From a virus, in IMG/VR virus record IMGVR_UViG_3300045974_000166, positions 96,001-160,000 of that record: a stretch of 64,000 nucleotides of DNA. One strand, 5' to 3'. Made by a program: the position numbers and the translations under genes. The notes below the pieces were generated by a model. That model did not search any database and was not told where the DNA came from. It was given only the letters and a program-made list of their open reading frames with translations. Shown here piece after piece: positions 25,928 through 61,834 of the stretch (the first letter of the stretch is position 1; every line of letters starts with the position of its first letter).

Positions 25928-26383
25928 ATGACTTGGATTTATGAAAACGAGCCGGTGACTGAGGTAGACCCAAAGTACATCGGCTTTATATATAGAATTA
26001 CGAATTTGATAGATGGCCGCATGTACATAGGTAAGAAAAAATCTACGTTCAAAAAGACATCTATCAAAACTGTAAAATTGAAGAATGGCGAAAAGAGAAA
26101 GAAAAAAATTCGATCTTTAGTTCCATCTGACTGGGATACCTATTATGGATCTTCGGAAGAATTAAAGAAAGATGTAGAAACTCTTGGTAAAGAAAATTTC
26201 AAACGAGAAATTACCAGGTGGTGTCGTACACTAACAGAGCTGACATATTTCGAAGCCCGAGAGCAGTTTGTTAGTGATTGTCTTTTATATCCAGATAAAT
26301 TCTATAATGCTTGGATTTCATGCAGAACTCGCAGAGATCATTTACTAAAATACGCACAAAATGAAAGTTGTATTAAAATCTAA
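25928..26383 (+). CDS. GIY-YIG family endonuclease-like protein
   Basis: GFIYRITNLIDGRMYIGKK...W..YYGSS..L..D....G...F.REI. Confidence 0.85.
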   Translation: MTWIYENEPVTEVDPKYIGFIYRITNLIDGRMYIGKKKSTFKKTSIKTVKLKNGEKRKKKIRSLVPSDWDTYYGSSEELKKDVETLGKENFKREITRWCRTLTELTYFEAREQFVSDCLLYPDKFYNAWISCRTRRDHLLKYAQNESCIKI

Positions 26384-26567: not shown

Positions 26568-27221
26568 GTGAGGTCGTTCCTCACACAAACTAAGATGAAA
26601 CCTAACAAACTGCCTCCAAAGGCATCACAGAAGCCTTTTGCTTCTATTCTCAAAAGTAAAGCCTTTGATATTTTTAAGTATTCTACTTATGTTGTACTTG
26701 CATTAGCAATTTTGAGTGGAATGATATATCTTGATGTGCCTAAACAACCTGTGGTCGTGCAAAAATCTACTCAAGAAACTGAGATATTTCTTTTGAGCAA
26801 AACTGCCTCTATCATTGCCCGCGATGGCGCTATTCCTTTAGAATTGGCCAAGAAATATGCACTATGGATTTATGAGGCTGCAGCCAAGTACTCTCTTGAT
26901 CCTGTACTACTACTTTCTGTGATGTACACTGAGTCTGGTTTTAACTATAAAGCAGTTTCTGCCTCTGGTCCCATTGGACTATTCCAAATTGCAGCATCAC
27001 AGCATAAAGACAAAACCACTTATGTAGCTCTATTTGATCCACATAACAATATTATGGTTGGTGCACAGATCATCAGAGAATATGCAGATCGATCTAAAAA
27101 TATGGTAGAAACTTTGCTACGTTATAGCGGCACATTGGGTGAACCACCAGACTATGCTAATAAGGTCCTAAATACCAAAAAGCGGTACGACAATGAAATT
27201 ATGAAAGCGATGGCACTATGA
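26568..27221 (+). CDS. Membrane-anchored lytic transglycosylase (SLT domain)
   Basis: N-terminal TM (YVVLALAILSGMIYL); LLLSVMYTESGFN..AVS..G.IGLFQI, NI..GAQI..EY, L.RY.G. Confidence 0.85.
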   Translation: MRSFLTQTKMKPNKLPPKASQKPFASILKSKAFDIFKYSTYVVLALAILSGMIYLDVPKQPVVVQKSTQETEIFLLSKTASIIARDGAIPLELAKKYALWIYEAAAKYSLDPVLLLSVMYTESGFNYKAVSASGPIGLFQIAASQHKDKTTYVALFDPHNNIMVGAQIIREYADRSKNMVETLLRYSGTLGEPPDYANKVLNTKKRYDNEIMKAMAL

Positions 27222-27403
27222 ATTACACTCTAGAGGTAAAAGAAGCAGAAAACGGAGAACTGTATATTGAGTTTCCGTCTGAGATGATGGAAGCGCTTGG
27301 CTGGGCAGCAGGTGACACTTTGAATTTTGCCGTACAAGATGATGGTTCTATAATCATTAAAAATTGTACATGCAATTTTCTGCGTGATATAATTAAATCT
27401 TAG
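27218..27403 (+). CDS. AbrB/MazE-like DNA-binding domain protein
   Basis: GELYIEFP.EMMEALGW..GDTL.F....DG.III. Confidence 0.7.
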   Translation: MNYTLEVKEAENGELYIEFPSEMMEALGWAAGDTLNFAVQDDGSIIIKNCTCNFLRDIIKS

Positions 27404-27437: not shown

Positions 27438-27445
27438 ATTAAATA
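27438..27445 (+). promoter_or_regulatory. T4-type late promoter upstream of the radical SAM gene
   Basis: ATTAAATA, same variant as in front of gp18 and ORF 15286. Confidence 0.5.
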
Positions 27446-27465: not shown

Positions 27466-28527
27466 ATGATAGAAATCCCAAACGGTTTTAGTAGAGAACA
27501 AATTGCCGCGGCCATATCACCTCGGCATCTTCATTTAACACTATTGCCAACGGAGAAATGTAATTTTCGTTGTACATATTGTTATGAAACGTTCGAAAAT
27601 GGCCGGATGAGTGAAGACGTCGTACAAGGTGTAAAATCTTTAATTGAACATCGAGCTAAGGACGGCCTTGATCTATTATCAATATCGTGGTTCGGTGGGG
27701 AACCACTTTTAGCACCAACTGTTGTTTTAGATATTATTACACGCGTCAGAGAACTCAAGGAAAAATATAACTTTGCAGTCAAGGGTGGCTTTACCACAAA
27801 TGGTTACTTACTTACTAAACAACTAGCAACCGAGTTAATTCGACTAGATCAATGGTTTTTTCAAATATCACTTGATGGTTGGGAAACCACACATGATCAA
27901 ACTAGAGTATTGGTTAATGGTAACGGCACATTTGATACCATTTTTAAGAATTTAGTTGCAATGAAGGACATTAAACAAGATTTTAATGTGCAATTACGTC
28001 TTCATCAAACTACTCAAAATGAAGAATCTATGGAGAAGTTAGGGCGAGAATTATATAAAGTTTTTAATGGAGATGATAGATTTACGTATGATATTCAGGA
28101 CGTTCGTGACTTGGGCGGGGACAAAGGAAAGAATATTGAAAAGTTACCAAAAAATTATTTTGAAATTAGAAGAGATAAATTGATTGCCATACTTTTCCCA
28201 GAGAATTTAAGAAATTCTGTAGACAAACACCACGAAGAAATAAAGGGAAATCCAGTATCATATATTTGTTATGCATCAAAACCGAATCATTTTTTGATTA
28301 GGTCAACGGGAAGAATTGGTAAATGTACTGTTGCATTAGAGGATGAACGGAATGATATAGGCGAACTTCATATAGATGGATCAATGACATTCGATAACGA
28401 TTTGCTAATGCAATGGTCGAAGGGCTTTAATACATTTGATCAAAAGAATCTTGCGTGTCCAGCCTGGAAGGTTGAGATGCCAAAAACGAGCAAACGCATT
28501 ATTCCAATTGGCGTAGCTACAACCTAG
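27466..28527 (+). CDS. Radical SAM peptide maturase with a Twitch/SPASM-like C-terminal domain
   Basis: CNFRCTYC (CX3CX2C), WFGGEPLL, TTNGYLL, QISLDG; C-terminal CYASKPN...GRIGKC...ACP cysteines. Confidence 0.9.
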   Translation: MIEIPNGFSREQIAAAISPRHLHLTLLPTEKCNFRCTYCYETFENGRMSEDVVQGVKSLIEHRAKDGLDLLSISWFGGEPLLAPTVVLDIITRVRELKEKYNFAVKGGFTTNGYLLTKQLATELIRLDQWFFQISLDGWETTHDQTRVLVNGNGTFDTIFKNLVAMKDIKQDFNVQLRLHQTTQNEESMEKLGRELYKVFNGDDRFTYDIQDVRDLGGDKGKNIEKLPKNYFEIRRDKLIAILFPENLRNSVDKHHEEIKGNPVSYICYASKPNHFLIRSTGRIGKCTVALEDERNDIGELHIDGSMTFDNDLLMQWSKGFNTFDQKNLACPAWKVEMPKTSKRIIPIGVATT

Positions 28528-28566
28528 GTTGTAATAATTTAAATTGGCTTTTAAAGGAAAATAGAA

Positions 28567-28785
28567 ATGAAATTCTCAGTAAATAAATTCGGTAAAACTA
28601 TGTTGAATGACGAAATGCTTTCGTCGATTGAAGCTAATGTGTCATTGGCCACGGCCGGTGGCCAGACTACCACCAATTCTAAGAATTGCAGTAGTTCAAC
28701 AAATGAAGTGTGTAGAAACACCGGTGATTGTACTAACGCCAATAATACACTTGTTTGTACTGGCACCAAAGTACTCCCTCAGTAA
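28567..28785 (+). CDS. RiPP precursor peptide (GG leader plus Asn/Cys-rich core)
   Basis: 72 aa, strong RBS (AAGGAA); leader ends ...L.DEML...ATAGG; core QTTTNSKNCSSSTNEVCRNTGDCTNANNTLVCTGTKVLPQ. Confidence 0.8.
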   Translation: MKFSVNKFGKTMLNDEMLSSIEANVSLATAGGQTTTNSKNCSSSTNEVCRNTGDCTNANNTLVCTGTKVLPQ

Positions 28786-28816
28786 GTAGTAATTATTTAA
28801 AATAGTCTAGTTTAGA

Positions 28817-28844
28817 TTTTAGGGGAAACTAGTTTCCCCTAAAA
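28817..28844. terminator. Perfect 28-bp palindrome between precursor and transporter genes
   Basis: TTTTAGGGGAAACT-AGTTTCCCCTAAAA. Confidence 0.7.
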
Positions 28845-28852
28845 AGTATATT

Positions 28853-30976
28853 TTGAAATATAATTATGAGAACTTAATGTCTTTATCATTTGTCTTTGAT
28901 CATAAAAATAAATGGCCCAGTGTAAAAAGGCCATTCGTCCCATTACAAACAAATCAGGCAGAGTGTGGTGTAGTTGCCGCAACAGCACTTGCTTGGATGT
29001 ACGGTGTACGTGTTAGTTACTCTGCTCTTTTAAATGTTGCCGGTGGAGCAACTCGGGGTCTTACATTAAGTCAAGTAAGAAGTTTACTTCGTCGAACTGG
29101 ATTTCAATGTGAAGTATATACAAGTGATCCAGAAACAATAGCAAATCAGTCGGGTTGCTCAATAGTACTCAAAAAGACAGGACATTTTTTGACTTTGGGC
29201 CCGCTTACCAGATGGGGTACACGAGAAGTTTTTGACCCAGCATTCGGCTGGTCTAAAATTGGTGTGAAAGATCTTGCAGAAGCCATTGAACCATATTCAA
29301 TAGAAATACTGCCAATACAGTCGGGATGTAAACTTCCGTTGCACCCAAAATTCCCATGGAAGGAATTTTTGAAAGAAGTAATTAGTCAGCGAATGTTGAT
29401 TAAGACATTGCCGATTTTATTTGTTGCTCAATTAGTTGCCGTATTATTTCCTTTGCTATCTGCAAAGGCATTTGATTCTCAGTTCAATGCACCAACGCCT
29501 GGCCTACAATTAGCAGTATATATTGCTCTGGTAAGTGGCCTTGTTGGTACCGGAATTTCTTTAGTTGGTGGTTGGTTTAAATCTCAACTTAAAGCAGATT
29601 TGGTGGGTAGGTCAATCAATGACGCCGTCAAAAAAGTTTTTAATATAAAGTTATCATTTCTGAGAAATAAATCAACAAATTCGCTAATTGGACTAGTCAA
29701 TTCTGTGGAGACAATAACACAAGAGATTCTGAACATTGTATCCGACTCTGCGGTAACTCTTATATTAGCTTTAGCGGCCTTTGTGATGCTTATGAAGGCT
29801 TCACCGATAATAGGTTTAATGTCATTTGGTTTAATTTGCTTAAGATGGTTAATAGATGTTTCAACCTATAAACAAATGGAACGGCTGGGAGAAAAGCATT
29901 TTAAGAACAGTGTCAGAAGTAAGCTTATGGTTTCTGATATGCTCCGTGCTATTATCCCAATGAGAATTGGTGGTACACAGATGCAAGCAGCACAACTTAT
30001 AAATGTACAAACCAACCATCTGGTAGAATCAGAGTATGAACTCGACAAATACAAACAGAATATTAATTCCATAATAAGTGTTTTCACAGTCATTGATAGG
30101 TTGGTATTAATGTTGGTAGGTGCCGAACTTGTCCGTCAAAATCTCATAACGCTTGGAACACTAATTTCGTTGTCAATTTATCGTGAAATGGTAAATTCCG
30201 GGGTTGGAGCAATTTCCTCTCTCTATAGTTCGACACATATAGCAGCTGCATATTCTCTTTCTCTGGCTGATGTGTATAAAGAACAAGAGAACACAATAAT
30301 TATTCATAGATTACCCGAAGATGGAAGTCTTAAGATTGATAACATTGATCTTTCATATTCTGAGTTGTCTGAACCTGTTCTCGTTGGTTTATCTTTGGAT
30401 ATTAAAAGCGGAGAAAATGTAGTTATAACGGGCCCTAGTGGTGCCGGGAAATCAACACTTTTAAAAGCAATTGCTGGACAACTCATACCAACATGTGGCA
30501 CAATCAAATTTGGTGGTATTGAATCATCAGAAGACACAATACATTGCATTACGAAATATATTGGATTCGTAATGCAAGATGATAAATTGATCCCAGCCAC
30601 AGTTGGTGAAAATATTAGACTATATAGAAAAGTTGATGACTCTGATCTAATTACTGCAGCTAAAGCAGCTGAACTCCACGATTTTATAATGTCCCTTCCG
30701 ATGCGATATGAAACCCCGATTTCCGAAGATGAATCTTCGTTTTCTGGTGGTCAAAGACAGCGTATTCTGCTAGCAAGAGCTTTATATGGAAGTCCTCTTG
30801 CCTTGATTTTAGATGAAGCAACAAGCTTTTTAGATACTGAAACTGCACAAGCCGTCTCAAAAAATCTAAAATCTATGGGAATAACCCGCATACATTTTGC
30901 CCACAGAATGGAATCGATTGAAGCAGCTGACCGTGTTATTGACATTAGGACATGCTCGATGCCCACTCTTTATTAA
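28853..30976 (+). CDS. Peptidase-containing ABC transporter (C39 peptidase + TMD + NBD)
   Basis: QTNQAECG catalytic Cys, TGHF His, TM helices, GPSGAGKST, FSGGQRQR, ILDEATS, FAHR; alternative start ATG 28877. Confidence 0.95.
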   Translation: MKYNYENLMSLSFVFDHKNKWPSVKRPFVPLQTNQAECGVVAATALAWMYGVRVSYSALLNVAGGATRGLTLSQVRSLLRRTGFQCEVYTSDPETIANQSGCSIVLKKTGHFLTLGPLTRWGTREVFDPAFGWSKIGVKDLAEAIEPYSIEILPIQSGCKLPLHPKFPWKEFLKEVISQRMLIKTLPILFVAQLVAVLFPLLSAKAFDSQFNAPTPGLQLAVYIALVSGLVGTGISLVGGWFKSQLKADLVGRSINDAVKKVFNIKLSFLRNKSTNSLIGLVNSVETITQEILNIVSDSAVTLILALAAFVMLMKASPIIGLMSFGLICLRWLIDVSTYKQMERLGEKHFKNSVRSKLMVSDMLRAIIPMRIGGTQMQAAQLINVQTNHLVESEYELDKYKQNINSIISVFTVIDRLVLMLVGAELVRQNLITLGTLISLSIYREMVNSGVGAISSLYSSTHIAAAYSLSLADVYKEQENTIIIHRLPEDGSLKIDNIDLSYSELSEPVLVGLSLDIKSGENVVITGPSGAGKSTLLKAIAGQLIPTCGTIKFGGIESSEDTIHCITKYIGFVMQDDKLIPATVGENIRLYRKVDDSDLITAAKAAELHDFIMSLPMRYETPISEDESSFSGGQRQRILLARALYGSPLALILDEATSFLDTETAQAVSKNLKSMGITRIHFAHRMESIEAADRVIDIRTCSMPTLY

Positions 30977-30977
30977 A

Positions 30978-31006
30978 TTTACACATATTGTTTGATGTGA
31001 TATAAT
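30978..31006 (+). promoter_or_regulatory. Phage early promoter
   Basis: aaTTTACAcata...17nt...TATAAT. Confidence 0.8.
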
Positions 31007-31011
31007 GAACT

Positions 31012-33204
31012 ATGTTCCAGAATACTAAATGTAATATGTTTAAAAAGACTTTGGTCAGTTTATCAAGTATTTTTTTCTTAAACAGCTTTTCACATGCACA
31101 GACAGATACGAACCAGCCCAAATCATTGGTGCTGCAACAATCTTCAGTGCCAAGCGACTGGGTTCACTCCTCAGAACTAGTGCCGTTGAATGCACTTCAC
31201 TCGGATCTCAAATATGAAATTGCTTCCGCGGCTTCATCAACAATTGTTCCAAGTAAGTACATAACCCGAGTCTCAACATTTCATGATCGCAATGCTTTGT
31301 ATGTTGAAATCAACGCGATAGACCCAACCCCAGATAAGATCATTGCTGCTAACGGAGTTCATGACACCGTAACAGTGGGTGATAAGGTTCAGTTATTTGT
31401 AGACCCATTGGGTACTGGTCGTAGGGCATATGTCTTTACTGTATCTGCCTCTGGTTCAACCGGTGATCAGATCATTAGTTCTGTTGGGGAAGCTTCCCCA
31501 AATTGGAATGGTCAATGGGAATCTAGTACAAAACGTACTAGTACCGGATATACGGTAAGGTATCGCATACCATTTCAAACAATAGAAGTTCAAGAAAACT
31601 CAAAAGACATAGCAATAAATGTTAATCGTTCCATAGGATATGGCCAGCGTGAAGTATTAAGTTGGGCTCCAGTTGACGTCCATCTTTCATGTGAGGTGTG
31701 TCAGTTTGAACATTTTAAACTTGATGATTTACAAGCACAAGAATCACAATTGCTATTGTCACCATATATTGTATCACGATATATTCAACAAACTGGTAAA
31801 AGTACTACTAAAGAAACTTACACAGGTTTAGATATGCAATGGTCAAAAAATGGGAACAAAATCATTGGAACAATTCGACCAGACTATTTGCAACTAGATT
31901 TTGATTCATTTCAAATTACAACCAATAGAAGATATGCAATTAATCTCACGGAAAATAGACCATTTTTCACACAAGACAGAGGCCCTTTTAACACAGAGAT
32001 GAGTTTAATTTATACCCGAGCAATTACTGATTTAGATTGGGGCGTTCAATATGTCGGCCGACAAGCTGATCAGACTTTTGGAGTCATAGTTGCCAAAGAC
32101 CGCTATACAAATATTGTTCGGCCGGAGATACTTGGGTCAAGTCTATCTTCACAAGAAAGTGGATCCACCAATGCTATCGTAAGTTATGGACTTCAACTGA
32201 ACGACAAACTAAGACTTGGGACATTGGCAACAGTGCGTTTTGGTGATAATTATCAAAACACTATGATATCTGGTTCACTCGGTTGGAGTCCTTCGGCCGA
32301 AAATTCATTCACAGTTGTAACAGCTTATTCGCAGACCCGCGATCCAATACAGGCAACTGTTCCTAATGGTAGCGCATTTTATTTGAATCATACTTATTCT
32401 GATAAGACTCTTTTTTCACAGTCTAGCATTACATACGTCGCCGAAAATTTCAGAGCTGACATGGGATATATGAATTTGGCTGGGGGAACCAGATTTTCAA
32501 ATTACGAAAGTTTGAACTTCGACCAGTCAGAAAATGACTTTATTACATCATATGGTGGTTATGTCACTTTTGATACGACTATAGATGCAGACAATAATCT
32601 AGTGAGTTATGACCAGACTTTGTCTGCATCTATAACTATGAAATCCCAGTATATATTTTCTATCAGTAAGCAAAAGAACATGTATATATTCGACACAAAG
32701 CGATTTTTGTCCGACCAAACAACTATCAATTTTGATGCAACACCATTTAACTGCTTCACTATTATGTCATCTTTCGGCCGTGGCACAACAACCGATTTCA
32801 ATGTTCTAGAACAGCGTCCACTTAGTAGTATGATGTTTACAACGGTGTGGCAAATTACATCACAGTGGAAAACTTCTACATCTATTATAAATGAAAAAGA
32901 CGCCGATTCAAACGATCTTGGATATAAAGCTAGGGTTGTCAATGTCAAACTGTCATATTCTCCCTCAAAATTCCACACTCTGAAATTACAATTGGCGCAG
33001 TCTAGTACTTTACAGAAAGATCTATTTGATGGGATTCTGTATGAACAACATTCAGTAAGTCAAAAAGAACAAATTGTTTACACATGGAATCCGCAAATAG
33101 GCACAACTTTAGTGCTTGGTTGGCAAGGTAATAGAACCAAGACTGATGGTAAGATTTCGACTCAAACAACTGCAGTCTTTGGTAAGTTTGTAAAAGTATT
33201 TTAA
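31012..33204 (+). CDS. Outer-membrane protein: signal peptide + CBM9/DOMON-like domain + beta-barrel (DUF5916-like)
   Basis: MFKKTLVSL...SHA signal peptide; D.V..F.DP.GTGRRAY.F, W.G.W.S...R...GY.V...IPF, E.RPFF; alternating beta strands; terminal Phe. Confidence 0.75.
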   Translation: MFQNTKCNMFKKTLVSLSSIFFLNSFSHAQTDTNQPKSLVLQQSSVPSDWVHSSELVPLNALHSDLKYEIASAASSTIVPSKYITRVSTFHDRNALYVEINAIDPTPDKIIAANGVHDTVTVGDKVQLFVDPLGTGRRAYVFTVSASGSTGDQIISSVGEASPNWNGQWESSTKRTSTGYTVRYRIPFQTIEVQENSKDIAINVNRSIGYGQREVLSWAPVDVHLSCEVCQFEHFKLDDLQAQESQLLLSPYIVSRYIQQTGKSTTKETYTGLDMQWSKNGNKIIGTIRPDYLQLDFDSFQITTNRRYAINLTENRPFFTQDRGPFNTEMSLIYTRAITDLDWGVQYVGRQADQTFGVIVAKDRYTNIVRPEILGSSLSSQESGSTNAIVSYGLQLNDKLRLGTLATVRFGDNYQNTMISGSLGWSPSAENSFTVVTAYSQTRDPIQATVPNGSAFYLNHTYSDKTLFSQSSITYVAENFRADMGYMNLAGGTRFSNYESLNFDQSENDFITSYGGYVTFDTTIDADNNLVSYDQTLSASITMKSQYIFSISKQKNMYIFDTKRFLSDQTTINFDATPFNCFTIMSSFGRGTTTDFNVLEQRPLSSMMFTTVWQITSQWKTSTSIINEKDADSNDLGYKARVVNVKLSYSPSKFHTLKLQLAQSSTLQKDLFDGILYEQHSVSQKEQIVYTWNPQIGTTLVLGWQGNRTKTDGKISTQTTAVFGKFVKVF

Positions 33205-33233
33205 TTTACACATAATACTCGGTGGTTTATAAT
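33205..33233 (+). promoter_or_regulatory. Phage early promoter
   Basis: TTTACA-cataatactcggtggtt-TATAAT. Confidence 0.85.
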
Positions 33234-33462: not shown

Positions 33463-33753
33463 ATGGGTAAGAAAACATTCTCTGTCGAAAAAATGCGTCT
33501 TGACATTAACTCTAGTCTCAAGAATTCAACCTCTGACTATTGTTCGAAAGATGTTCGTCAAGGTCTCTGCAATGCTCTAGAGTATGTGCTTCATACTTCT
33601 GGAAACTACCACGGCTTTAAGTACCTTTGGCAAGATGCTGTGCCGCAGGGCGAATTACCGGGTATCGTTGTGCATGGGCTAATTGAAACCACGCCACAAG
33701 AAGTTCGCTTTGCCAAAGGTACTGTGGATGAAACCCGCCGGGAATACTTTTGA
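33463..33753 (+). CDS. Hypothetical protein
   Basis: RBS AGGA; packed ORF. Confidence 0.65.
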   Translation: MGKKTFSVEKMRLDINSSLKNSTSDYCSKDVRQGLCNALEYVLHTSGNYHGFKYLWQDAVPQGELPGIVVHGLIETTPQEVRFAKGTVDETRREYF

Positions 33754-33900
33754 AACCCAATAAAAAGATTCGGAAGTCAATTGCCGACTGGCAAAGTTCT
33801 CAAAAGCAAGTAGAACTTTGCCCGGCATGTTCTGGCTCGGGTTATTATGATGTGCAGGGAAGTCCAAAATGTGGATCCTGCTCTGGAACAGGAATTAAAA

Positions 33901-34140
33901 ATGAACCTAGTCGAACAAATCGTTGAACTTGCCAAAGAGATTGAGGCAGAAGACCCGATTGATTTTGGAATGCTTAATGTGTCTGAAGACGTCGCGTATT
34001 CCATAATGGCCTCGGGCGTACTCGATTCGTATCTGATGAATGATCCCGAGGATCGCGATCTGATTCTTATGGCTACTGTTACTAAACTAATAGTAGAAAA
34101 TTTTGTACTTAACTTAGAAAAGGCTAAAAGAAATGAGTAA
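33901..34140 (+). CDS. Hypothetical protein
   Basis: MNLVEQIVELAKEIE..DPIDFGML; RBS AGGA; track start 33847. Confidence 0.6.
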   Translation: MNLVEQIVELAKEIEAEDPIDFGMLNVSEDVAYSIMASGVLDSYLMNDPEDRDLILMATVTKLIVENFVLNLEKAKRNE

Positions 34141-56055: not shown

Positions 56056-56150
56056 GAACTCGTAGTGATGGAATTGGTAGACATAGGGCCCTTTCCGGGT
56101 CCTGCCGTAAAAAGCGTACAGGTTCGAGTCCTGTCTACAATGAGTTCGCA
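56056..56150 (+). ncRNA. tRNA-like RNA: Leu/Ser-type body, TTC anticodon, bulged 10-bp acceptor, no CCA
   Basis: D arm ATGGAATTGGTAGACAT, long variable arm, T arm ACAGG-TTCGAGT-CCTGT. Confidence 0.5.
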
Positions 56151-56539
56151 TTTTAAAGTATTCTGCAACGGCCGATTGTGGTCAAATAGACGAAGAGCGT
56201 ATAAGGTTGGTACCAACCTAAATCCCAGTAGGTTTATGAAGTAGAATGCTTTAAAATGATTTCAATCCACAATCCTCGCTCATCTGGGGATTACAATATG
56301 GGAATTAACCCTAAATGCGATGAGGCATTGACATCCTGTAAGGGTGTATAGCTTGAATTAACAGGGTGGATCGAAATGATTTTATAGTTGAAGGCATTGC
56401 ACTATCTGAGAAACACATCAGTAGGGTTGCTCCTACACCGGTGTGAAAAGTCGGAATTCGTTCTTCGCAGAGTTCAATAACCGTATTGGGACGAAGGTAA
56501 AGTGTTTTGAACAGTGCCTTCAACTATAAATAGAAATAT

Positions 56540-56615
56540 GGGCTGGTAGTGATACTGGGGTACACGAGGCACTTGCAATGCTTAGATTGGAGTTCGATCC
56601 TCCACCGGTCCACCA
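56540..56615 (+). tRNA. tRNA-Ala(TGC)
   Basis: Cloverleaf, G3:U70, CCA. Confidence 0.9.
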
Positions 56616-56622
56616 AAAATTT

Positions 56623-56694
56623 GCGGGTTGTTTGTGGAATACGTTTAGCCTTCCAAGCTGAAAGATGCAGGTTCGAACCCTGTAGCCCGCTCCA
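56623..56694 (+). tRNA. tRNA-Gly(TCC)
   Basis: Acceptor GCGGGTT, loop CTTCCAA, T arm, TCCA end; weak D arm. Confidence 0.8.
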
Positions 56695-56703
56695 CTTTAA
56701 TGA

Positions 56704-56780
56704 GTCCCAGTAGCCGAATAGGTATAGGCAGCTGTCTTAAAAGCAGTAATCTGTGGGTTCGAGTCCCACTTGGGACACCA
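56704..56780 (+). tRNA. tRNA-Leu(TAA), short variable loop
   Basis: Loop CTTAAAA, T arm, ACCA. Confidence 0.8.
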
Positions 56781-56787
56781 AGAATAA

Positions 56788-56863
56788 GCCAATGTGGGAC
56801 AGGGGTTGTCCAGCTGATTGTCTATCAGCCTTTATGACGGTTCGAGTCCGTTCGTTGGCGCCA
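56788..56863 (+). tRNA. tRNA-Asp(GTC)
   Basis: GCTGA-TTGTCTA-TCAGC, G73, CCA. Confidence 0.8.
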
Positions 56864-56868
56864 AGTTA

Positions 56869-56927
56869 AGGATCAGTTCAGCAAAAACTAAAAACTTTGA
56901 ATCATTCTCAAACTAAAAGTTGATCCT
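56869..56927 (+). ncRNA. Y-RNA-like element, copy 1 (short)
   Basis: AGGATCA/TGATCCT stem, GTTCAGCAA motif, A-rich interior. Confidence 0.5.
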
Positions 56928-56932
56928 GTTAA

Positions 56933-56961
56933 TTTACACATATTGATGAATGTTTTATAAT
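56933..56961 (+). promoter_or_regulatory. Phage early promoter
   Basis: TTTACA-17nt-TATAAT. Confidence 0.85.
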
Positions 56962-56986
56962 AACACATCAAATACGGAATTGCAAA

Positions 56987-57151
56987 ATGATTAAAGTTAA
57001 CATGAAACAAATGAAAAATTGGAAGGTTACTTCTGATAACGTTAAATTCTATGACTCAATCATGAAAACAAAAGGTTCTGTAGTTACTTTAGACAAAAGA
57101 CCTTATGTTGAATTACTTTGTGAGTTCAACATAATGTTTACGGCAAAATAA
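56987..57151 (+). CDS. Hypothetical protein (54 aa, not in ORF track)
   Basis: Follows promoter; MIKVNMKQMKNWKVTSDNVKFYDS... Confidence 0.5.
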   Translation: MIKVNMKQMKNWKVTSDNVKFYDSIMKTKGSVVTLDKRPYVELLCEFNIMFTAK

Positions 57152-57228
57152 TTTACACATAATATGGAATGATTTTAAATCATTCCATCCAATCAAACAT
57201 CGCTTTGATTGACTAGGTTCATTAAAAA
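57152..57228 (+). promoter_or_regulatory. Early promoter + boxB-like hairpin + boxA leader, copy 3
   Basis: TTTACA-17nt-TTAAAT; CAATCAAA-CATCGc-TTTGATTG; GTTCATTAAAAA. Confidence 0.65.
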
Positions 57229-57271
57229 GTTATTGAAGGATTTTCTGTGTTGACACTTAGTTGGCACAGAG

Positions 57272-57360
57272 ATCATTCCGAAGCATAAAGCAACCGTGGC
57301 AGAGATCGTCACAACTAACCATGGAATAGATGTGTTGCTCCATGTATGCTTCGGAATGAT
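57272..57360 (+). ncRNA. Stem-enclosed RNA cassette (same family as the 55177-56530 array)
   Basis: ATCATTCCGAAGCATA / TATGCTTCGGAATGAT perfect 16 bp. Confidence 0.55.
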
Positions 57361-57367
57361 GAATATT

Positions 57368-57453
57368 GGAGTAGACGCCTGAGTGGAAGGGCTCCCGGCT
57401 GTAACCCGGAGGACAGTAATGCTGTGTAGGTTCGAACCCTACCTGCTCCACCA
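57368..57453 (+). tRNA. tRNA-Tyr(GTA)
   Basis: Loop CTGTAAC, long variable arm, ACCA. Confidence 0.9.
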
Positions 57454-57460
57454 ATTTTAT

Positions 57461-57539
57461 TGACCATAAGCCGACAAGGTGTTAGGCGCTTGACTGTTAA
57501 TCAAGAATGAGGTAGGTTCGATTCCTACATGGTCAGCCA
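57461..57539 (+). tRNA. tRNA-Asn(GTT)
   Basis: CTTGA-CTGTTAA-TCAAG, GCCA. Confidence 0.92.
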
Positions 57540-57545
57540 AGTTAT

Positions 57546-57803
57546 TTCGTTGTAGTATAGAGGAAGGTAGAGTAGTATTGAGTATGTGAGATAAGGCATC
57601 TAGTAGTGCAAAGTAGATAACAATCGCGTAGGCTTAAAAAAACCAAACACTGTGAGCCGGGGAAGTGCCGGACAGGTTGAAATGCATGAAGAGTGAGATA
57701 AGGCGCAGAGGGGATATGAGGGTAACTTTGGGAAATACACGGGCCACCCAGCATACGCGATTTTGGGCCCTAGTCGCAGGTTCGAGCCCTGCCAATGAAG
57801 CCA
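57546..57803 (+). ncRNA. 258-nt tRNA-framed RNA with a giant D-loop insertion
   Basis: Acceptor TTCGTTG/CAATGAA-G-CCA, D stem GTAT...ATAC, stem GGGCC/GGCCC with 20-nt loop, canonical T arm. Confidence 0.6.
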
Positions 57804-57806
57804 AGT

Positions 57807-57959
57807 TTTGAAGTGTAGATGTTGAGAACACAGGAACTCGAAAGCCCTGTAAGCAGATTTAGCGATCTATGTACCAACTATTACTACGTATCTCTAACCC
57901 ACCGCGGCTAGTATTCATGGGTAAAATGGTTCCGAATGAGGGAGACGGAACACTTCAAA
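57807..57959 (+). ncRNA. Stem-enclosed RNA cassette
   Basis: TTTGAAGTG / CACTTCAAA closing stem. Confidence 0.4.
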
Positions 57960-57968
57960 TTCATTTTT

Positions 57969-58023
57969 AGGTTCCGTTCAGCAAATTCAAAAATTTCACT
58001 TTTAATGAAAAAATAAGGAACCT
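57969..58023 (+). ncRNA. Y-RNA-like element, copy 2 (short)
   Basis: AGGTTCC/GGAACCT stem, GTTCAGCAA motif. Confidence 0.5.
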
Positions 58024-58031
58024 GTTATTTT

Positions 58032-58107
58032 AGCCTTGTATTCAATCGTAGTTGAAACCTCTCTCATAAAGAGGATATAGGCGGTTAGACTCCGTCCTAG
58101 GCCACCA
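58032..58107 (+). tRNA. tRNA-Met/Ile2(CAT), degenerate
   Basis: CCTCT-CTCATAA-AGAGG; T loop TTAGACT; acceptor mismatches. Confidence 0.6.
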
Positions 58108-58109
58108 AA

Positions 58110-58475
58110 TACTAAGTTGTTTGCTAGTAGTAGAGTAGATGGAAACCGAGCCGGAAAGATGTTCCGGTCTTCACAGAAATGTGACAAACGATAAGCAAAG
58201 TCGGTCCAGTAGGGAGTCGAAAGCAAACAATGGCGGAAAGACCTGCCGAGGACAGAAGTTAAGATCATACACAGACGGCCCACATGGTACCGACTGGCAA
58301 TTCGATCCTAACGCCGTGTATTCCTTCCCAAATTGAATCAAGTGGAAAGCAAGAGCCACAAAGTAAATGTTAGATGATCATGGCTGCTCGGTCATCTTTG
58401 CTGTGATACACGGCGTCAGTTGTCCGCAAGGGTAGCAATTGAGAAACAACGGGGTAAGAATCCCAACTAAGAGTA
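58110..58475 (+). ncRNA. Candidate large structured ncRNA (about 365 nt)
   Basis: Terminal pairing TACT..AGTTG / CAACT..AGTA; long-range ACGCCGTGTAT / ATACACGGCGT; many GNRA loops. Confidence 0.55.
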
Positions 58476-58489
58476 TGCCTCCAATTTTC

Positions 58490-58564
58490 ACCGCGTTCGA
58501 CTTCTGGTGAGGTCAACAGCCTTTCAAGCTGTGTAGACGGGCTCGAAACCCGTACGCGGTACCA
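58490..58564 (+). tRNA. tRNA-Glu(TTC)
   Basis: ACAGC-CTTTCAA-GCTGT, ACCA. Confidence 0.85.
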
Positions 58565-58625
58565 ACATTTGAAGACGCCAAGGTTACCTGCACCATAACG
58601 GCAAGCAGGACTTCAAATTCAATTC

Positions 58626-58699
58626 GCCTATGTAGCTCAATGGTAGAGCAATCGACTGATAATCGATCGACGAAGGTCCGATTCCTTACGTAGGCACCA
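58626..58699 (+). tRNA. tRNA-Ile(GAT)
   Basis: ATCGA-CTGATAA-TCGAT, ACCA. Confidence 0.9.
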
Positions 58700-58704
58700 A
58701 ATAT

Positions 58705-58782
58705 GAGGCGTGAGCTAGTGTGGTCATTCAGCGACGGTCTGAAAAGCCGTAGAACAAGGTCCGATTCCTTGACGCCCCACCA
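58705..58782 (+). tRNA. tRNA-Phe(GAA)
   Basis: ACGGT-CTGAAAA-GCCGT, ACCA. Confidence 0.85.
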
Positions 58783-58789
58783 AAGTTAT

Positions 58790-58882
58790 GGAGATGTGGT
58801 CGAGTCTGGTTTATGGCAACGGTCTTGAAAACCGTCGGGGACTAACCCTCCCCCGTGAGTTCGAATCTCACCGTCTCCGCCA
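58790..58882 (+). tRNA. tRNA-Ser(TGA)
   Basis: Loop CTTGAAA, long variable arm, GCCA. Confidence 0.93.
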
Positions 58883-58890
58883 AAATTTAT

Positions 58891-58964
58891 GCACTTAGAG
58901 CCGGTTGGATAGGCAGCGGATTGCAAACCCGTGTAACTCAGTTCGATTCTGAGTAGGTGTTCCA
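58891..58964 (+). tRNA. tRNA-Cys(GCA)
   Basis: Loop TTGCAAA, U73, CCA. Confidence 0.85.
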
Positions 58965-58970
58965 GTATTT

Positions 58971-59044
58971 CTCGGTATAGTTTAATAGTAGAATTTATGC
59001 TTTGGGAGCATGGGATGGGGGTGCGATTCCTCCTACCGAGACCA
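58971..59044 (+). tRNA. tRNA-Pro(TGG)
   Basis: C1:G72, loop TTTGGGA, ACCA. Confidence 0.85.
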
Positions 59045-59050
59045 ATTTAA

Positions 59051-59127
59051 CAGTATGTGGTGACAAGTGGACGTCGACTAGTTTTGGAAACTAGAATATA
59101 TCGGTTCGAGGCCGATCATACTGACCA
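59051..59127 (+). tRNA. tRNA-Pro(TGG), second divergent copy
   Basis: CTAGT-TTTGGAA-ACTAG, C1:G72, ACCA. Confidence 0.75.
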
Positions 59128-59229
59128 TTTTAAGTAAGACATTCGGGTTGACCACAAGGCCACGTGCCAAGGTAAGGTGTCTGAAGTATAAGCAACAGGT
59201 TTGGTCATGCTTATGCACGAAAAAGTTTT

Positions 59230-59305
59230 GAGTAGTTACAGCAATTAATAAAATCTGGCTGAGGGTTTCGATTTCCCTCTTTAATCAAAAAGTAGATCAC
59301 TACTC
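59230..59305 (+). ncRNA. Y-RNA-like element, copy 3 (with T-arm-like hairpin)
   Basis: GAGTAGT/ACTACTC stem, TTACAGCAA motif, GAGGG-tTTCGATTt-CCCTC. Confidence 0.5.
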
Positions 59306-59316
59306 AGTTATATTAC

Positions 59317-59391
59317 CTGCCATTCGTATAGTGAATAATACAACTTTCTTCTAAAGAGTGAACGGGAGTTTGATTCTCTCATGGCGGACCA
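59317..59391 (+). tRNA. tRNA-Arg(TCT)
   Basis: Acceptor CTGCCAT/ATGGCGG, loop CTTCTAA, ACCA. Confidence 0.75.
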
Positions 59392-59415
59392 AAGATCATT
59401 AAGAATAAAAATAAC

Positions 59416-59423
59416 TATAAATA
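59416..59423 (+). promoter_or_regulatory. T4 late promoter (TATAAATA) inside the tRNA array
   Basis: Exact T4 late consensus 8 nt before tRNA-Gly(GCC). Confidence 0.6.
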
Positions 59424-59431
59424 GTAAGTAT

Positions 59432-59505
59432 GTGGGGTTAGTTAAATGGTAGAACCAAACGTTGCCAACGTTTAGACACGGGTCCGATTCCCGTACCTCA
59501 CACCA
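59432..59505 (+). tRNA. tRNA-Gly(GCC)
   Basis: AAACG-TTGCCAA-CGTTT, ACCA. Confidence 0.88.
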
Positions 59506-59510
59506 AATTT

Positions 59511-59585
59511 GCTCTCAAAGCATAGACAGCGATGCAGGGGTCTTGTAAGCCTCAGAGTAGGGCGCAAGTCCTTATGGGAGCACCA
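59511..59585 (+). tRNA. tRNA-Thr(TGT)
   Basis: Loop CTTGTAA, acceptor GCTCTCA/TGGGAGC, ACCA. Confidence 0.8.
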
Positions 59586-59590
59586 AATTA

Positions 59591-59664
59591 CGCAGGTAGT
59601 GTAGCCAACAATCCTCTCTCATAAGGACGGATCATCGGAGGTGCGAATCCTTCACCTGCACCCA
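59591..59664 (+). tRNA. tRNA-Met-like (CAT), degenerate, C1:A72 mismatch
   Basis: Loop CTCATAA, T arm GGAGG-TGCGAAT-CCTTC; weak anticodon stem. Confidence 0.45.
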
Positions 59665-59689
59665 TTTAATCATAGAAAGGCATCATATC

Positions 59690-60253
59690 ATGAATAGGTA
59701 TCCATTAGTGCTAACACTAGATTCTGCAGGTATTCCGCAGAGATGGTCTACCTGGGAAGAAGGTGTCGTGGCAAAATACAAAGGCGTTATCGCTTGGTCA
59801 CTTGGTGAAGAAACCATCTACCGGGGCGGTAACTCAAGACTTACTGGCGAACAATCAACCGTAGCAGTTCCATCTATTATTGCTATTCGATCTATGGGTC
59901 GTACAAAGAACCGAGCAGTGCCACTTACAAACAAGAATTTGTTTGGGCGTGACCGGAACATTTGTTGTTACTGTGGTACTCATGTGAAAGATCATGACGC
60001 TACACGTGACCATATTGTTCCGTATGCTAAGAAAGGTACGAACGTTTGGATGAATGTTGTTACTGCATGTAAGCCTTGCAATAACTATAAGGATGACAAA
60101 ACTGTAGAACAAGCTGGGCTAGAGATGCTATATGCACCTTATGTCCCAGATCGTGCAGAAGCTTTGATTCTTGCCAACCGTAACATTTTGGCAGATCAAA
60201 TGGAATTCTTATTGGCACATTTGCCTAAGCATTCTCGGGCACGACCACATTAG
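59690..60253 (+). CDS. HNH endonuclease
   Basis: LFGRDRNICCYCG, TRDHIVP..K.G...WMNVVTACK.CN..K. Confidence 0.92.
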   Translation: MNRYPLVLTLDSAGIPQRWSTWEEGVVAKYKGVIAWSLGEETIYRGGNSRLTGEQSTVAVPSIIAIRSMGRTKNRAVPLTNKNLFGRDRNICCYCGTHVKDHDATRDHIVPYAKKGTNVWMNVVTACKPCNNYKDDKTVEQAGLEMLYAPYVPDRAEALILANRNILADQMEFLLAHLPKHSRARPH

Positions 60254-60342
60254 GGGTGTGGGCAGGATGGTAATGCAGCGGTTTGCTAAACCGTAGAGTC
60301 CCTCAAAAGGCTCACAGGGTCCGATTCCCTGACACTCCGCCA
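60253..60342 (+). tRNA. tRNA-Ser(GCT)
   Basis: GCGGT-TTGCTAA-ACCGT, long variable arm, GCCA. Confidence 0.9.
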
Positions 60343-60347
60343 ATTTT

Positions 60348-60459
60348 AGGATCAGTTCAGCATTTAATATACCAAGCAGCTTGTTGTGAGTTCGATTCTC
60401 ACCTTCCGAGTAATCGGTTGTAGTTCAACGGTAGAACAGCCGCCAATTAAAGTGATCCT
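60348..60459 (+). ncRNA. YrlA-like Y RNA with circularly permuted tRNA module (copy 4)
   Basis: AGGATCA/TGATCCT stem + GTTCAGCA; T arm 60386-60402, closed acceptor 60403-60420 with GTAA loop, TA + D arm 60423-60437. Confidence 0.7.
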
Positions 60460-60470
60460 GCTAAATATAC

Positions 60471-60546
60471 TGGGGGTTTGTCATTTGGTAATGACACTGC
60501 GCTTTGACCGCAGGAAAGTCGGGTCCGATTCCCACACCCTCTGCCA
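60471..60546 (+). tRNA. tRNA-Gln(TTG)
   Basis: CTGCG-CTTTGAC-CGCAG, GCCA. Confidence 0.8.
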
Positions 60547-60581
60547 ACATTATTGATTTTTAACTAGATGGAGTACTCCAA

Positions 60582-60734
60582 ATGAAAGATAGAAGTGTGA
60601 AACATAAAGAAGCCCTGAGCCGTAACACGGAATGGGCAAAACTTTCCCCTACTGAGCAATTAGCTCAACTGGATAAGTTGGGTTTGGTAGCAACCAAACA
60701 GCGAAAGAAAATTGCTGCTAAAATGGCAGCTTGA
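60582..60734 (+). CDS. Small basic protein (50 aa, not in ORF track)
   Basis: RBS GGAG; W..LSP.EQLA.LD.....A.KQR.K. Confidence 0.6.
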   Translation: MKDRSVKHKEALSRNTEWAKLSPTEQLAQLDKLGLVATKQRKKIAAKMAA

Positions 60735-60741
60735 GATATAC

Positions 60742-60815
60742 AGGTGGTTGGTGTAATGGCAACATTGCGGTCTCCAAAATCGTCGATCGGGGTTCGAGTC
60801 CCTGGCTGCCTGCCA
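60742..60815 (+). tRNA. tRNA-Trp(CCA)
   Basis: Loop CTCCAAA, G73, CCA. Confidence 0.88.
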
Positions 60816-60828
60816 AGACAATTTAGGT

Positions 60829-60902
60829 GTGGCCTTATCATAAAAGTAATGACCTAGGCTGTGAACTTAGTTAAGAGGGAGCATTACCCTCAGGTCACCC
60901 CT
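60829..60902 (+). tRNA. tRNA-His(GTG), degenerate
   Basis: Acceptor GTGGCCT/AGGTCAC, C73, loop CTGTGAA; T loop AGCATTA; ends CCT and -1 base is T. Confidence 0.55.
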
Positions 60903-60913
60903 AAATTGTTTTT

Positions 60914-60990
60914 GCGGATGTGGCGAAATTGGTAAACGCAGCGGTCTTAGAAGCCGTAGGCTGTGGGTTCGAGTCCCACCATCCGCACCA
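60914..60990 (+). tRNA. tRNA-Leu(TAG), short variable loop
   Basis: Leu-type D arm, loop CTTAGAA, ACCA. Confidence 0.88.
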
Positions 60991-61067
60991 AAATTTACGG
61001 GGAGCAACTAATCATTGCCGCTATATGTCCATACCCCGTGGGTATAGTGTTTCCCTGTAAAACTTAC

Positions 61068-61142
61068 ATCTCTGTAGTACAACGGAAAGTATCTAAGTTT
61101 GCGAAACTTAAGACGGTGGTTCGACTCCACCCAGAGGTACCA
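61068..61142 (+). tRNA. tRNA-Arg(GCG)
   Basis: TAAGT-TTGCGAA-ACTTA, T arm, ACCA. Confidence 0.82.
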
Positions 61143-61158
61143 TCATTAAAGGAAAATC

Positions 61159-61347
61159 ATGAAAAAACTTATCGCTCTCATTACATTGGCTTTTGCCTCT
61201 ACCGCTTTTGCTGCTGCTTCGGCACCTCGCGTACATGTACAACTCAAGGTTGCTCAGCCACCAGTCCAAGCAGCTGTTAATGAAACAAAACTAAAGCAGC
61301 GTGCTGCTAAGTTGGCCAAGGCCAAGGCTAAAGCCGCTTCTAAGTAA
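61159..61347 (+). CDS. Small exported protein with signal peptide
   Basis: MKKLIALITLAFASTAFA; RBS AAGGAA; Ala/Lys-rich tail. Confidence 0.75.
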   Translation: MKKLIALITLAFASTAFAAASAPRVHVQLKVAQPPVQAAVNETKLKQRAAKLAKAKAKAASK

Positions 61348-61418
61348 GAAGTACTCCGACACAGATACTGTATCTCGTCTGTGTTGGGGAGGGTGGAATA
61401 CAGCCACCCGAGAGATAC

Positions 61419-61495
61419 GTCCATGTAGCCGAATTGGTATAGGCACCTGTTTCAAAAGCAGTCATCTGTGGGTTCGAGTCCCACCTTGGACACCA
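61419..61495 (+). tRNA. tRNA-Leu(CAA), short variable loop
   Basis: Loop TTCAAAA; near-paralog of tRNA-Leu(TAA) at 56704. Confidence 0.8.
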
Positions 61496-61505
61496 ACCAA
61501 ATTAT

Positions 61506-61580
61506 GCGCGGGTAGCTCAGAGGAAGAGCAACTCTTTTACACGGAGAAGGTCGAGATTTCAAAATTCTCCCTGCGCACCA
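61506..61580 (+). tRNA. tRNA-Val(TAC)
   Basis: Loop TTTACAC, ACCA. Confidence 0.85.
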
Positions 61581-61588
61581 AAACATTA

Positions 61589-61663
61589 GGGTCGTTAGTA
61601 CAACGAATAGTATCATTGTCTTCGAAACAATAGATAAAGGTTTGACTCCTTTACGACCCCCCA
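61589..61663 (+). tRNA. tRNA-Arg(TCG)
   Basis: ATTGT-CTTCGAA-ACAAT; acceptor GGGTCGT/ACGACCC. Confidence 0.8.
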
Positions 61664-61668
61664 ACATC

Positions 61669-61743
61669 GCCCAGTTATTTCAGTGGTAGTAATAAATCTT
61701 TGGTAAGGATTAGACGGGGGTTCGATTCCCCCACAGGGCACCA
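61669..61743 (+). tRNA. tRNA-Thr(GGT)
   Basis: AATCT-TTGGTAA-GGATT, ACCA. Confidence 0.8.
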
Positions 61744-61749
61744 AATAAA

Positions 61750-61834
61750 GCGAATGTGGCGTAACTGGTAGCCGCGCTAGTCTAAGAAGCTAGTGGAGAA
61801 ATCCGTGTCGGTTCGAGTCCGACCATTCGCACCA
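61750..61834 (+). tRNA. tRNA-Leu(AAG)
   Basis: CTAGT-CTAAGAA-GCTAG, long variable arm, ACCA. Confidence 0.88.

Follow-up and report, generated by a model that had tools for sequence, protein, structure and literature searches.

In Gram-negative bacteria the export of microcins and colicin V relies on the peptidase-containing ABC exporter (PCAT) CvaB together with the adaptor CvaA and TolC. In the ranthipeptide and sactipeptide maturases, which are radical S-adenosylmethionine (radical-SAM) enzymes, thiol activation is believed to be the task of an auxiliary cluster. Sublancin is encoded on the temperate phage SPbeta and, to our knowledge, phage secondary-metabolite clusters have so far been viewed as the cargo of temperate phages that serves the lysogen. 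A further relevant chemistry is that of the streptococcal enzyme NxxcB, which joins a cysteine to the beta-carbon of an upstream asparagine, with an auxiliary cluster activating the thiol (PMC9389541). The locus considered here is a run of four genes in a T4-type phage that appears to direct the synthesis and export of a ribosomally synthesised and post-translationally modified peptide (RiPP). It lies within positions 96,001 to 160,000 of the IMG/VR virus record IMGVR_UViG_3300045974_000166, a stretch of 64,000 nucleotides that is referred to throughout as the window; coordinates are those of the window unless they are called genome coordinates, which refer to the whole 192,097-bp record.

The four genes are intact, co-oriented open reading frames (ORFs) on the plus strand (27466-28527, 28567-28785, 28853-30976 and 31012-33204), encoding in turn a radical-SAM peptide maturase, a small precursor peptide, a PCAT and a protein with a predicted outer-membrane beta-barrel. 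A sequence-only reading had reported four ORFs at these coordinates, with intact catalytic motifs, as an apparently complete cluster of the radical-SAM RiPP (RaS-RiPP) type in a T4-like phage. The ORF check returned the coordinates exactly, the catalytic residues are all present (C32/C36/C39 and GGEP in the maturase, the C39-peptidase and ATPase residues in the exporter), and the ORF families, the conserved gene order and the comparison with relatives support the cluster as a whole. The locus is quite probably a genuine and intact make-and-export cassette of bacterial origin that entered the genome of a virulent T4-type myovirus as an insertion and is wired to phage promoters. This reading is supported by the recurrence of the same gene order in bacteria, often on mobile elements, and the existence of related phages in which the flanking genes are preserved and the cluster is absent. 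No such cluster in a T4-type or any other virulent phage was found in INPHARED, in IMG/VR as scanned, or in the literature searched.

The maturase and its precursor family

The first gene (27466..28527, plus strand) specifies a maturase of 353 amino acids, which matches PF04055 with 56.6 bits over a cut-off of 29.5. Its best NCBIfam matches are all to RiPP maturases (TIGR04463, PapB, Clo7bot, CefB and the geopeptide family), and CteB and anSME are its top sequence matches among solved structures. The AlphaFold2 (AF2) model of the protein has a predicted local distance difference test (pLDDT) score of 85, and its nearest folds are those of CteB, anSME, ChlB, SkfB and SuiB, with fold-match probabilities of 1.00. 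When the phage protein is aligned with 19 homologues, the invariant features are C32/C36/C39 of the CX3CX2C motif, the GGEP motif and exactly three C-terminal cysteines, which are set out as C268-x13-G-x4-C287 and C331-P. The three C-terminal cysteines, the missing CX2CX5CX3C block and the N-terminus of about 27 residues mark the enzyme, on its sequence, as a compact Twitch-type maturase with a single auxiliary cluster, and not as a full SPASM protein or one with a RiPP precursor recognition element (RRE).

This architecture also brings with it the points that speak against placing the enzyme among the established peptide maturases. It scores far under every NCBIfam equivalog cut-off (127 against 525 for TIGR04463 and 115 against 340 for PapB); the seven-cysteine SPASM motif is incomplete because of the absent block; and no N-terminal RRE is found, only about 27 residues, with one short helix in the model, preceding the strand of the SAM cluster. 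With neither an RRE nor a full SPASM domain the maturase therefore lies outside every characterised or curated maturase family.

The start of this gene affects how it is recognised. The gene call of the source (P0001) begins at Met48 and gives a protein of 306 amino acids, which would remove the CX3CX2C motif (window 27466-27606). The homologues align from residue ~3, and on this alignment the 353-aa ORF is the real maturase, the radical-SAM nature of which an automatic annotation would miss.

The second gene (28567..28785, plus strand) encodes the precursor peptide of 72 amino acids which, according to the family alignment, consists of a leader that ends in A-G-G (residues 30-32) and a core of 40 amino acids. 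The core contains four N-x2-3-C motifs that account for all 4 of its cysteines. No family in Pfam or NCBIfam matches this peptide. Small ORFs that lie beside maturase homologues from unrelated sources share a leader pattern, ..DG.V.L.D..L..LE.., that closes with AGG or AGA and is followed by cores with four to six N-x2-3-C repeats, so that the precursor is indeed conserved next to homologues of the radical-SAM enzyme, a point that the sequence-only reading had left to be checked. Across the aligned family the leader ends in AGG, AGA, AGR or xSG. The regularity of the core is pronounced: an asparagine is found at -3 or -4 of 54 of the 58 core cysteines in 12 precursors, against 14.4 expected from composition, a value that was reached in none of 5000 shuffles, and the offsets of asparagine from cysteine peak sharply at -3 (33) and -4 (23).

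An exhaustive profile search with the precursor recovered 464 clusters at 50% identity, nearly all of them 65-110 amino acids in length and matched end to end. The precursor family is thus a sizeable and unnamed one of at least 464 clusters that Pfam and NCBIfam do not contain. Within one bacterial class, two of the 400 genomes sampled had it, and its distribution is therefore patchy. Separately, a protein of 3148 amino acids (P0164) contains 17 stretches that match the leader half of the precursor profile (profile positions 4-35), from which it may be suggested that the leader fold was derived from, or reused as, a repeat module.

What is it, then, that the maturase does to this peptide? Asparagine-cysteine thioether chemistry, as carried out by NxxcB, is probably the answer by analogy. 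The principal alternative is that the cassette is active with a different chemistry, for instance the formation of alpha-thioethers (sactionine), an anSME-like oxidation of cysteine or another radical modification. This fits with the presence of the sactisynthase-type CteB and SkfB, and also of anSME, among the nearest solved folds, and with the occurrence of three-cysteine Twitch domains in enzymes of varied chemistry; the near-invariant asparagine at -3/-4 is, however, most simply understood if asparagine is the cross-link acceptor, as in NxxcA/NxxcB, and we regard a different chemistry as rather unlikely.

Between the precursor and exporter genes lies a hairpin with a 12-bp stem (28817..28844, plus strand; -18.3 kcal/mol, z -3.2), a putative attenuator or stabiliser. 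A hairpin after the precursor gene is a common layout in RiPP operons that favours the precursor transcript. Two of the bacterial loci, L001 and L173, have hairpins in the same position that are unrelated in sequence.

The exporter, the barrel and the bacterial cassettes

The third gene (28853..30976, plus strand) is a 707-aa ORF for a PCAT in which the Pfam families Peptidase_C39, ABC_membrane and ABC_tran are all above cut-off, and which matches phrog_2392 with an E value of 1.8e-109. The true start is probably the ATG at 28877, as in the 699-aa gene call of the source. Across eight cassette PCATs the peptidase residues Gln32, Cys38, His111 and Asp128-Pro129 are invariant, as are the Walker A, Q-loop, signature, Walker B and H-loop elements of the ATPase. 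The A-G-G of the precursor provides the double-glycine type of leader end that marks a PCAT substrate, and the cleavage site is predicted there. A homology search with the PCAT gave mostly generic ABC proteins and no closer donor. No gene for a HlyD-type adaptor or for TolC was found within 26-34 kb of the window, no match to Rfam within 26-34.5 kb, and no immunity or regulator gene within the cluster. That no immunity gene is present agrees with a producer close to lysis, although the bacterial cassettes have no obvious one either.

The fourth gene (31012..33204, plus strand) is a 730-aa ORF, the true start of which is probably the ATG at 31036 (722 amino acids). The protein combines a secreted CBM9-like domain with a very large predicted outer-membrane beta-barrel of the DUF5916 fold. 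CBM9_1 is its only Pfam match (30.6 bits over a cut-off of 23.4). The AF2 model, with a pLDDT of 81, has a signal peptide, a disordered linker, a beta-sandwich (~84-236) and a very large barrel (~246-728) ending in Phe, which bears out the description of this gene in the sequence-only reading as a signal-peptide beta-barrel. In Foldseek comparisons the barrel matches MtrB, the barrels of TonB-dependent receptors, LptD and AlgE, and the N-terminal domain matches CBM9 (1i82). In the ESM Atlas the protein matches, at a template-modelling (TM) score of 0.90 over 701 residues, a cluster in which 97% of the members are DUF5916 proteins. The nearest barrel homologue, P0127, shares 67% identity and sits among bacterial genes on a contig of 52% GC, and the Pfam family itself (PF19313) is carried by the homologues P0129-P0150 and by the barrel proteins of the bacterial loci L001, L166 and L169.

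The same gene order was indeed found when the four-gene arrangement was searched for in bacteria, as the sequence-only reading had proposed. Maturase, precursor, PCAT and DUF5916 barrel follow each other in exactly this order in one bacterial genome and two metagenome contigs (L001-L003); L166 has the same order with two precursors and sits beside Tn7-like genes; and the metagenome contig L169 has the same genes rearranged. In the variant cassettes (L005, L167, L168 and L173) the arrangement differs. For instance, L005, which lies on an integrase/MobA island, and L173 have an anchored helical protein of ~310 amino acids in place of the barrel, and L167, on a long metagenome contig, combines a HlyD-type adaptor with PCAT, maturase, precursor and a helical protein of ~302 amino acids, and has no barrel. 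These membrane-anchored helical proteins of ~300-325 amino acids (L005:11775-12752, L167:8564-9472, L173:4991-5935) stand at the position of the barrel, belong to no Pfam family and have a mutual identity of only 19-25%.

The linkage suggests that the barrel takes part in export of the peptide. Two observations tell against this: the Pfam DUF5916 model (PF19313) finds no match on the phage barrel, nor in the genome at E <= 1, and the export role rests on linkage in a handful of loci, with other cassettes using the ~310-aa protein or a HlyD adaptor. The barrel might instead be an independent early gene, acting as a superinfection-exclusion receptor mask or an uptake pore, or it might serve the peptide as a receptor, as an immunity factor or as an anchor. 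Such roles would be in keeping with its own early promoter, which makes it a separate promoter-bounded module, with nearest folds that are uptake receptors and MtrB and not TolC-like ducts, and with the cassettes that do without a barrel. Set against them is the finding that the barrel co-travels with maturase, precursor and PCAT in at least three independent bacterial lineages, and that among the loci sampled HlyD-type adaptors occur only where the barrel is missing (L004 and L167). A role other than that of an export channel is consequently to be taken seriously, if on balance doubtful.

A FastTree phylogeny places all of the cassette-bearing maturases in one clade of 41 rows with 96% local support, and the phage maturase is nested within this clade on a long branch. 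This fits a transfer from bacteria to phage, with the root of the tree not established. A scan of genome contigs gave mostly more distant maturase homologues that occur in other contexts without PCAT or barrel, and the cassette is therefore confined to a maturase subclade. The closest bacterial proteins to those of the cluster are 46-67% identical.

Among viruses, neither the cluster DNA with its left flank in a search of INPHARED (50,697 records) nor single-sequence scans of IMG/VR with the maturase, barrel and PCAT gave a match or a close viral relative, respectively. The sequence-only reading had drawn its phage-borne examples, sublancin among them, from temperate phages; that observation stands and can be extended, since a P2-like temperate element with a CI repressor and a GPD baseplate hub on a 66-kb IMG/VR contig (L008:6347-13429) carries this same RiPP family. 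Besides a maturase from that family it has two N-x-x-C precursors, and in place of a PCAT there are two permeases of the MacB/FtsX type. Carriage of this RiPP family by phages is therefore not unique to the present record.

Insertion, promoters and the carrier phage

The arrangement of the insertion is apparent from seven related IMG/VR phage contigs, which have up to 93% amino-acid identity and in which the flanks are in strict synteny and the cluster is absent. The shared order is helicase, primase, ribonucleotide reductase (RNR), SegE-like gene, SLT gene and MazE-like gene, and then directly the genes that follow the cluster here. In the closest relative, L178, the gap between the MazE-like gene and the first early gene is ~56 nt. 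The syntenic relatives, with the same flanks and no cluster, therefore indicate that the cluster is a precise insertion of 5.8 kb at the boundary of the replication/late and early genes, a hyperplastic spot. Acquisition as a block, which had been suspected from codon usage, is thereby shown by this comparison. The position that had been given for the cluster, between replication/lysis genes and the early region, is likewise confirmed by the families of the flanking genes and by the promoters: helicase, primase, class II RNR, a SegE-like endonuclease and an SLT transglycosylase lie upstream, and the early-promoter region lies downstream.

The early promoter of this phage is an element of the form TTTACACATAAT..TG.TATAAT, of which ~35 strand-consistent copies occur genome-wide, those within the window including copies at 30978, 33205, 35599, 35997, 37040 and 38788. 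Three copies are associated with the insertion site in the window and one with the same site in L178. At the left junction a degenerate copy (27365..27393, plus strand; TGTACA-17-TATAAT with TG) overlaps the 3' end of the MazE/AbrB-like gene and aligns with the single intact promoter that L178 has at the same place. A full copy (TTTACACATATT..TG.TATAAT; 30978..31006, plus strand), the first of the plus series, occupies the 35-nt spacer between PCAT and barrel and so precedes the barrel gene. At the right junction a perfect copy (33205..33233, plus strand) is followed by the 5' untranslated region and the first early gene, as in the relatives without the cluster. With three promoter copies the insertion is thus composed of two promoter-bounded modules. 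The MazE/AbrB-like gene (27218-27403) has a different and longer C-terminus than its counterpart in cluster-less L178 (L178:8649-8795), since the promoter lying across its 3' end was degraded by the insertion. The copies of the ~29-nt element also divide by strand: those at genome 25-55 kb are without exception on the minus strand and those from genome 127 kb onward on the plus strand, a split that marks two divergent early regions.

A second type of signal precedes the maturase. The octamer ATTAAATA (27438..27445, plus strand), 28 nt 5' of the radical-SAM start codon, has 32 copies genome-wide, 18 of which precede a co-oriented ORF by no more than 70 nt, the sheath (7162) and scaffold (16655) genes among them, and from this placement it would act as a late promoter.

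The foreign look of the codon usage, which the sequence-only reading had noted by eye, holds only in part. The fractions of ATA (0.36 against 0.18), AGA (0.36 against 0.26) and GGG (0.09 against 0.06) are indeed raised in the cluster, but the codon scores of whole genes are ordinary for the genome (z -0.02 to -0.28). The GC content is low by only 0.7-1.1 standard deviations in the maturase, PCAT and barrel genes and by 0.2 in the peptide gene, and at 36-40% compares with 42-64% in the bacterial loci. The codon usage of the cluster is ameliorated and not foreign. The 24 tRNA genes of the phage form a block (window 56059-61834) that includes tRNA-Ile(GAT), tRNA-Arg(TCT) and tRNA-Leu(TAA); a tRNA reading ATA was not found, though the use of ATA in the cluster is twice that in the rest of the genome.

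The distribution of the cluster speaks against the reading preferred here: it is found in one of eight related phage contigs, this one alone. Together with the origin of the record in a metagenomic assembly, and with short repeated promoters at the junctions that could in principle mislead an assembler, this raises the question of whether the assembly wrongly joined a bacterial RiPP cluster to phage sequence. Such a chimera would nevertheless have to contain a full phage-specific early promoter in the spacer between PCAT and barrel, a late-type phage motif ahead of the maturase, and a GC content and codon usage that match the phage and not the bacterial loci, and, with the closest bacterial proteins no more than 46-67% identical, no known bacterial sequence could be its source. 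Any donor would need the promoters of this phage and so would have to be a phage of the same sort. We therefore regard an assembly chimera as very unlikely.

The same absence from all sampled relatives could also mean that the cluster is real but an idle passenger, a recently captured moron without a role in infection. A secreted peptide is of no obvious benefit to a phage that lyses its host, and immunity and regulator genes are absent. Against idleness, none of the four ORFs is disrupted and no catalytic residue is lost, the full amelioration and the long maturase branch imply a long residence in AT-rich phage genomes, and phage promoters are properly positioned before both modules. The passenger explanation is accordingly judged unlikely, and an intact cassette under phage control is preferred.

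The shuffling of promoter cassettes (promoter early stem-loop, PeSL) is documented in the hyperplastic regions of T4-type phages (PMC2839356, PMC4122927). With regard to its stem-loop half, no terminator-like site lies directly upstream of the promoter copies here, where coding sequence reaches the promoters.

The carrier record is 192,097 bp in length and 100% complete according to CheckV. The claim that it is a T4-like phage is upheld by family matches to the Gp23 capsid (430 bits), the Gp20 portal (508 bits), the gp18 sheath and the gp19 tube, and the phage also encodes helicase, primase and the 24 tRNA genes. No tyrosine or serine recombinase (PF00589, PF00239; integrase/resolvase) was found in the whole 192-kb record and, from what is known of the T4-type group and with no lysogeny genes found, the phage is presumably virulent. 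Its Gp23 capsid is at most 61% identical to that of any INPHARED phage. Since the phage encodes an outer-membrane barrel, a diderm host is implied. A cyanobacterial host, which the nearest relatives of the capsid had brought to mind, was rejected; psbA was searched for and not found.

Some features of the surroundings may be added. A SegE-like GIY-YIG homing endonuclease (window 25928-26383) lies between the class II RNR and SLT genes and has 59-93% identity in the relatives, two of which, L179 and L184, have ~1 kb of additional DNA between the RNR and SegE-like genes. Beyond the cluster, a 58-aa ORF (window 33750-33926) with two CxxCxGxG motifs, resembling a DnaJ-type zinc finger, runs into the ORF that follows; the related phage contigs have no equivalent of it.

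Proposed working and comparison with known systems

From these elements a working scheme can be put forward. In infection the barrel gene would be transcribed from the early promoter, so that the channel in the outer membrane is in place before the rest. Transcription of the maturase, precursor and exporter genes would follow, driven by the ATTAAATA late-type motif, the degenerate early promoter or both, with the hairpin after the precursor gene favouring precursor mRNA. The Twitch-type enzyme would link each of the four core cysteines to the asparagine 3-4 residues upstream, most likely through beta-thioethers as for NxxcB, to judge from the conserved motif and the thioether-making fold relatives. 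The PCAT, the residues of which are intact, would next cut off the leader after Gly31-Gly32 and pump a product of ~40 amino acids over the inner membrane, as is known for its family. Finally, as its co-occurrence suggests, the DUF5916 barrel would pass or hold the peptide at the outer membrane, replacing the HlyD/TolC route. These steps would place the action of the product in the envelope or outside the infected cell; an antimicrobial, a signal and a metallophore are the candidate roles that the sequence-only reading put forward. Taken further, the captured RiPP factory might give a strictly lytic phage a weapon or signal with built-in timing, with an early channel and a late, secreted peptide, stapled by multiple thioethers, that is directed at neighbours or rival phages, and with DUF5916 proteins as a new class of peptide export or docking proteins in place of adaptor and TolC; this larger proposal is a tentative one.

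If true, lytic infections, too, can release designed small molecules, with a bearing on phage-phage and phage-community interactions and on the spread of biosynthetic clusters. Neither the precursor family nor its linkage to DUF5916 seems to have been described before. A literature search for DUF5916 gave nothing relevant. Two uncharacterised bacterial families, the N-x2-3-C precursors with their compact Twitch-type maturase and the DUF5916 barrels, would gain testable hypotheses, the latter with peptide export or docking as a concrete candidate function.

With NxxcA/NxxcB the phage system shares the Asn-x-x(-x)-Cys core, an adjacent radical-SAM enzyme with an auxiliary iron-sulfur cluster and an exported product (PMC9389541). 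The phage family, however, repeats the motif four to six times, where NxxcA has it once; its context is a Gram-negative/phage one, with a leader of the GG type, a PCAT and an added outer-membrane barrel; and its enzyme has a three-cysteine Twitch-like domain and no RRE. The maturases of SCIFF-type thioether RiPPs, CteB, PapB and SkfB, act on cysteine-rich substrates, as is predicted for the phage maturase, and provide its best sequence and fold matches, but in CteB and PapB an RRE is joined to a complete SPASM domain that holds two auxiliary clusters, neither of which domains the phage protein has, and the latter scores 115-127 against 340-525. The export of microcins and colicin V likewise involves the cleavage of a double-glycine leader by an N-terminal C39 domain during ABC export, and one PCAT homologue is labelled CvaB/MchF/RaxB by its source; unlike those systems, the phage cluster has no HlyD adaptor or immunity gene and has the DUF5916 barrel in the place of the adaptor. 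As in PeSL shuffling, accessory genes lie in a hyperplastic region with repeated early-promoter cassettes and precise insertions or deletions between close relatives, although the stem-loop half is lacking and the cargo is a predicted functional operon of 5.8 kb and not small ORFans. Finally, the temperate-phage RiPP clusters, sublancin on SPbeta and that of L008, are also peptide-modification clusters borne as accessory phage cargo, but whereas those are genes of lysogenic conversion with expression from the prophage, the cluster described here resides in an integrase-free T4-type phage under the promoters of the lytic cycle.

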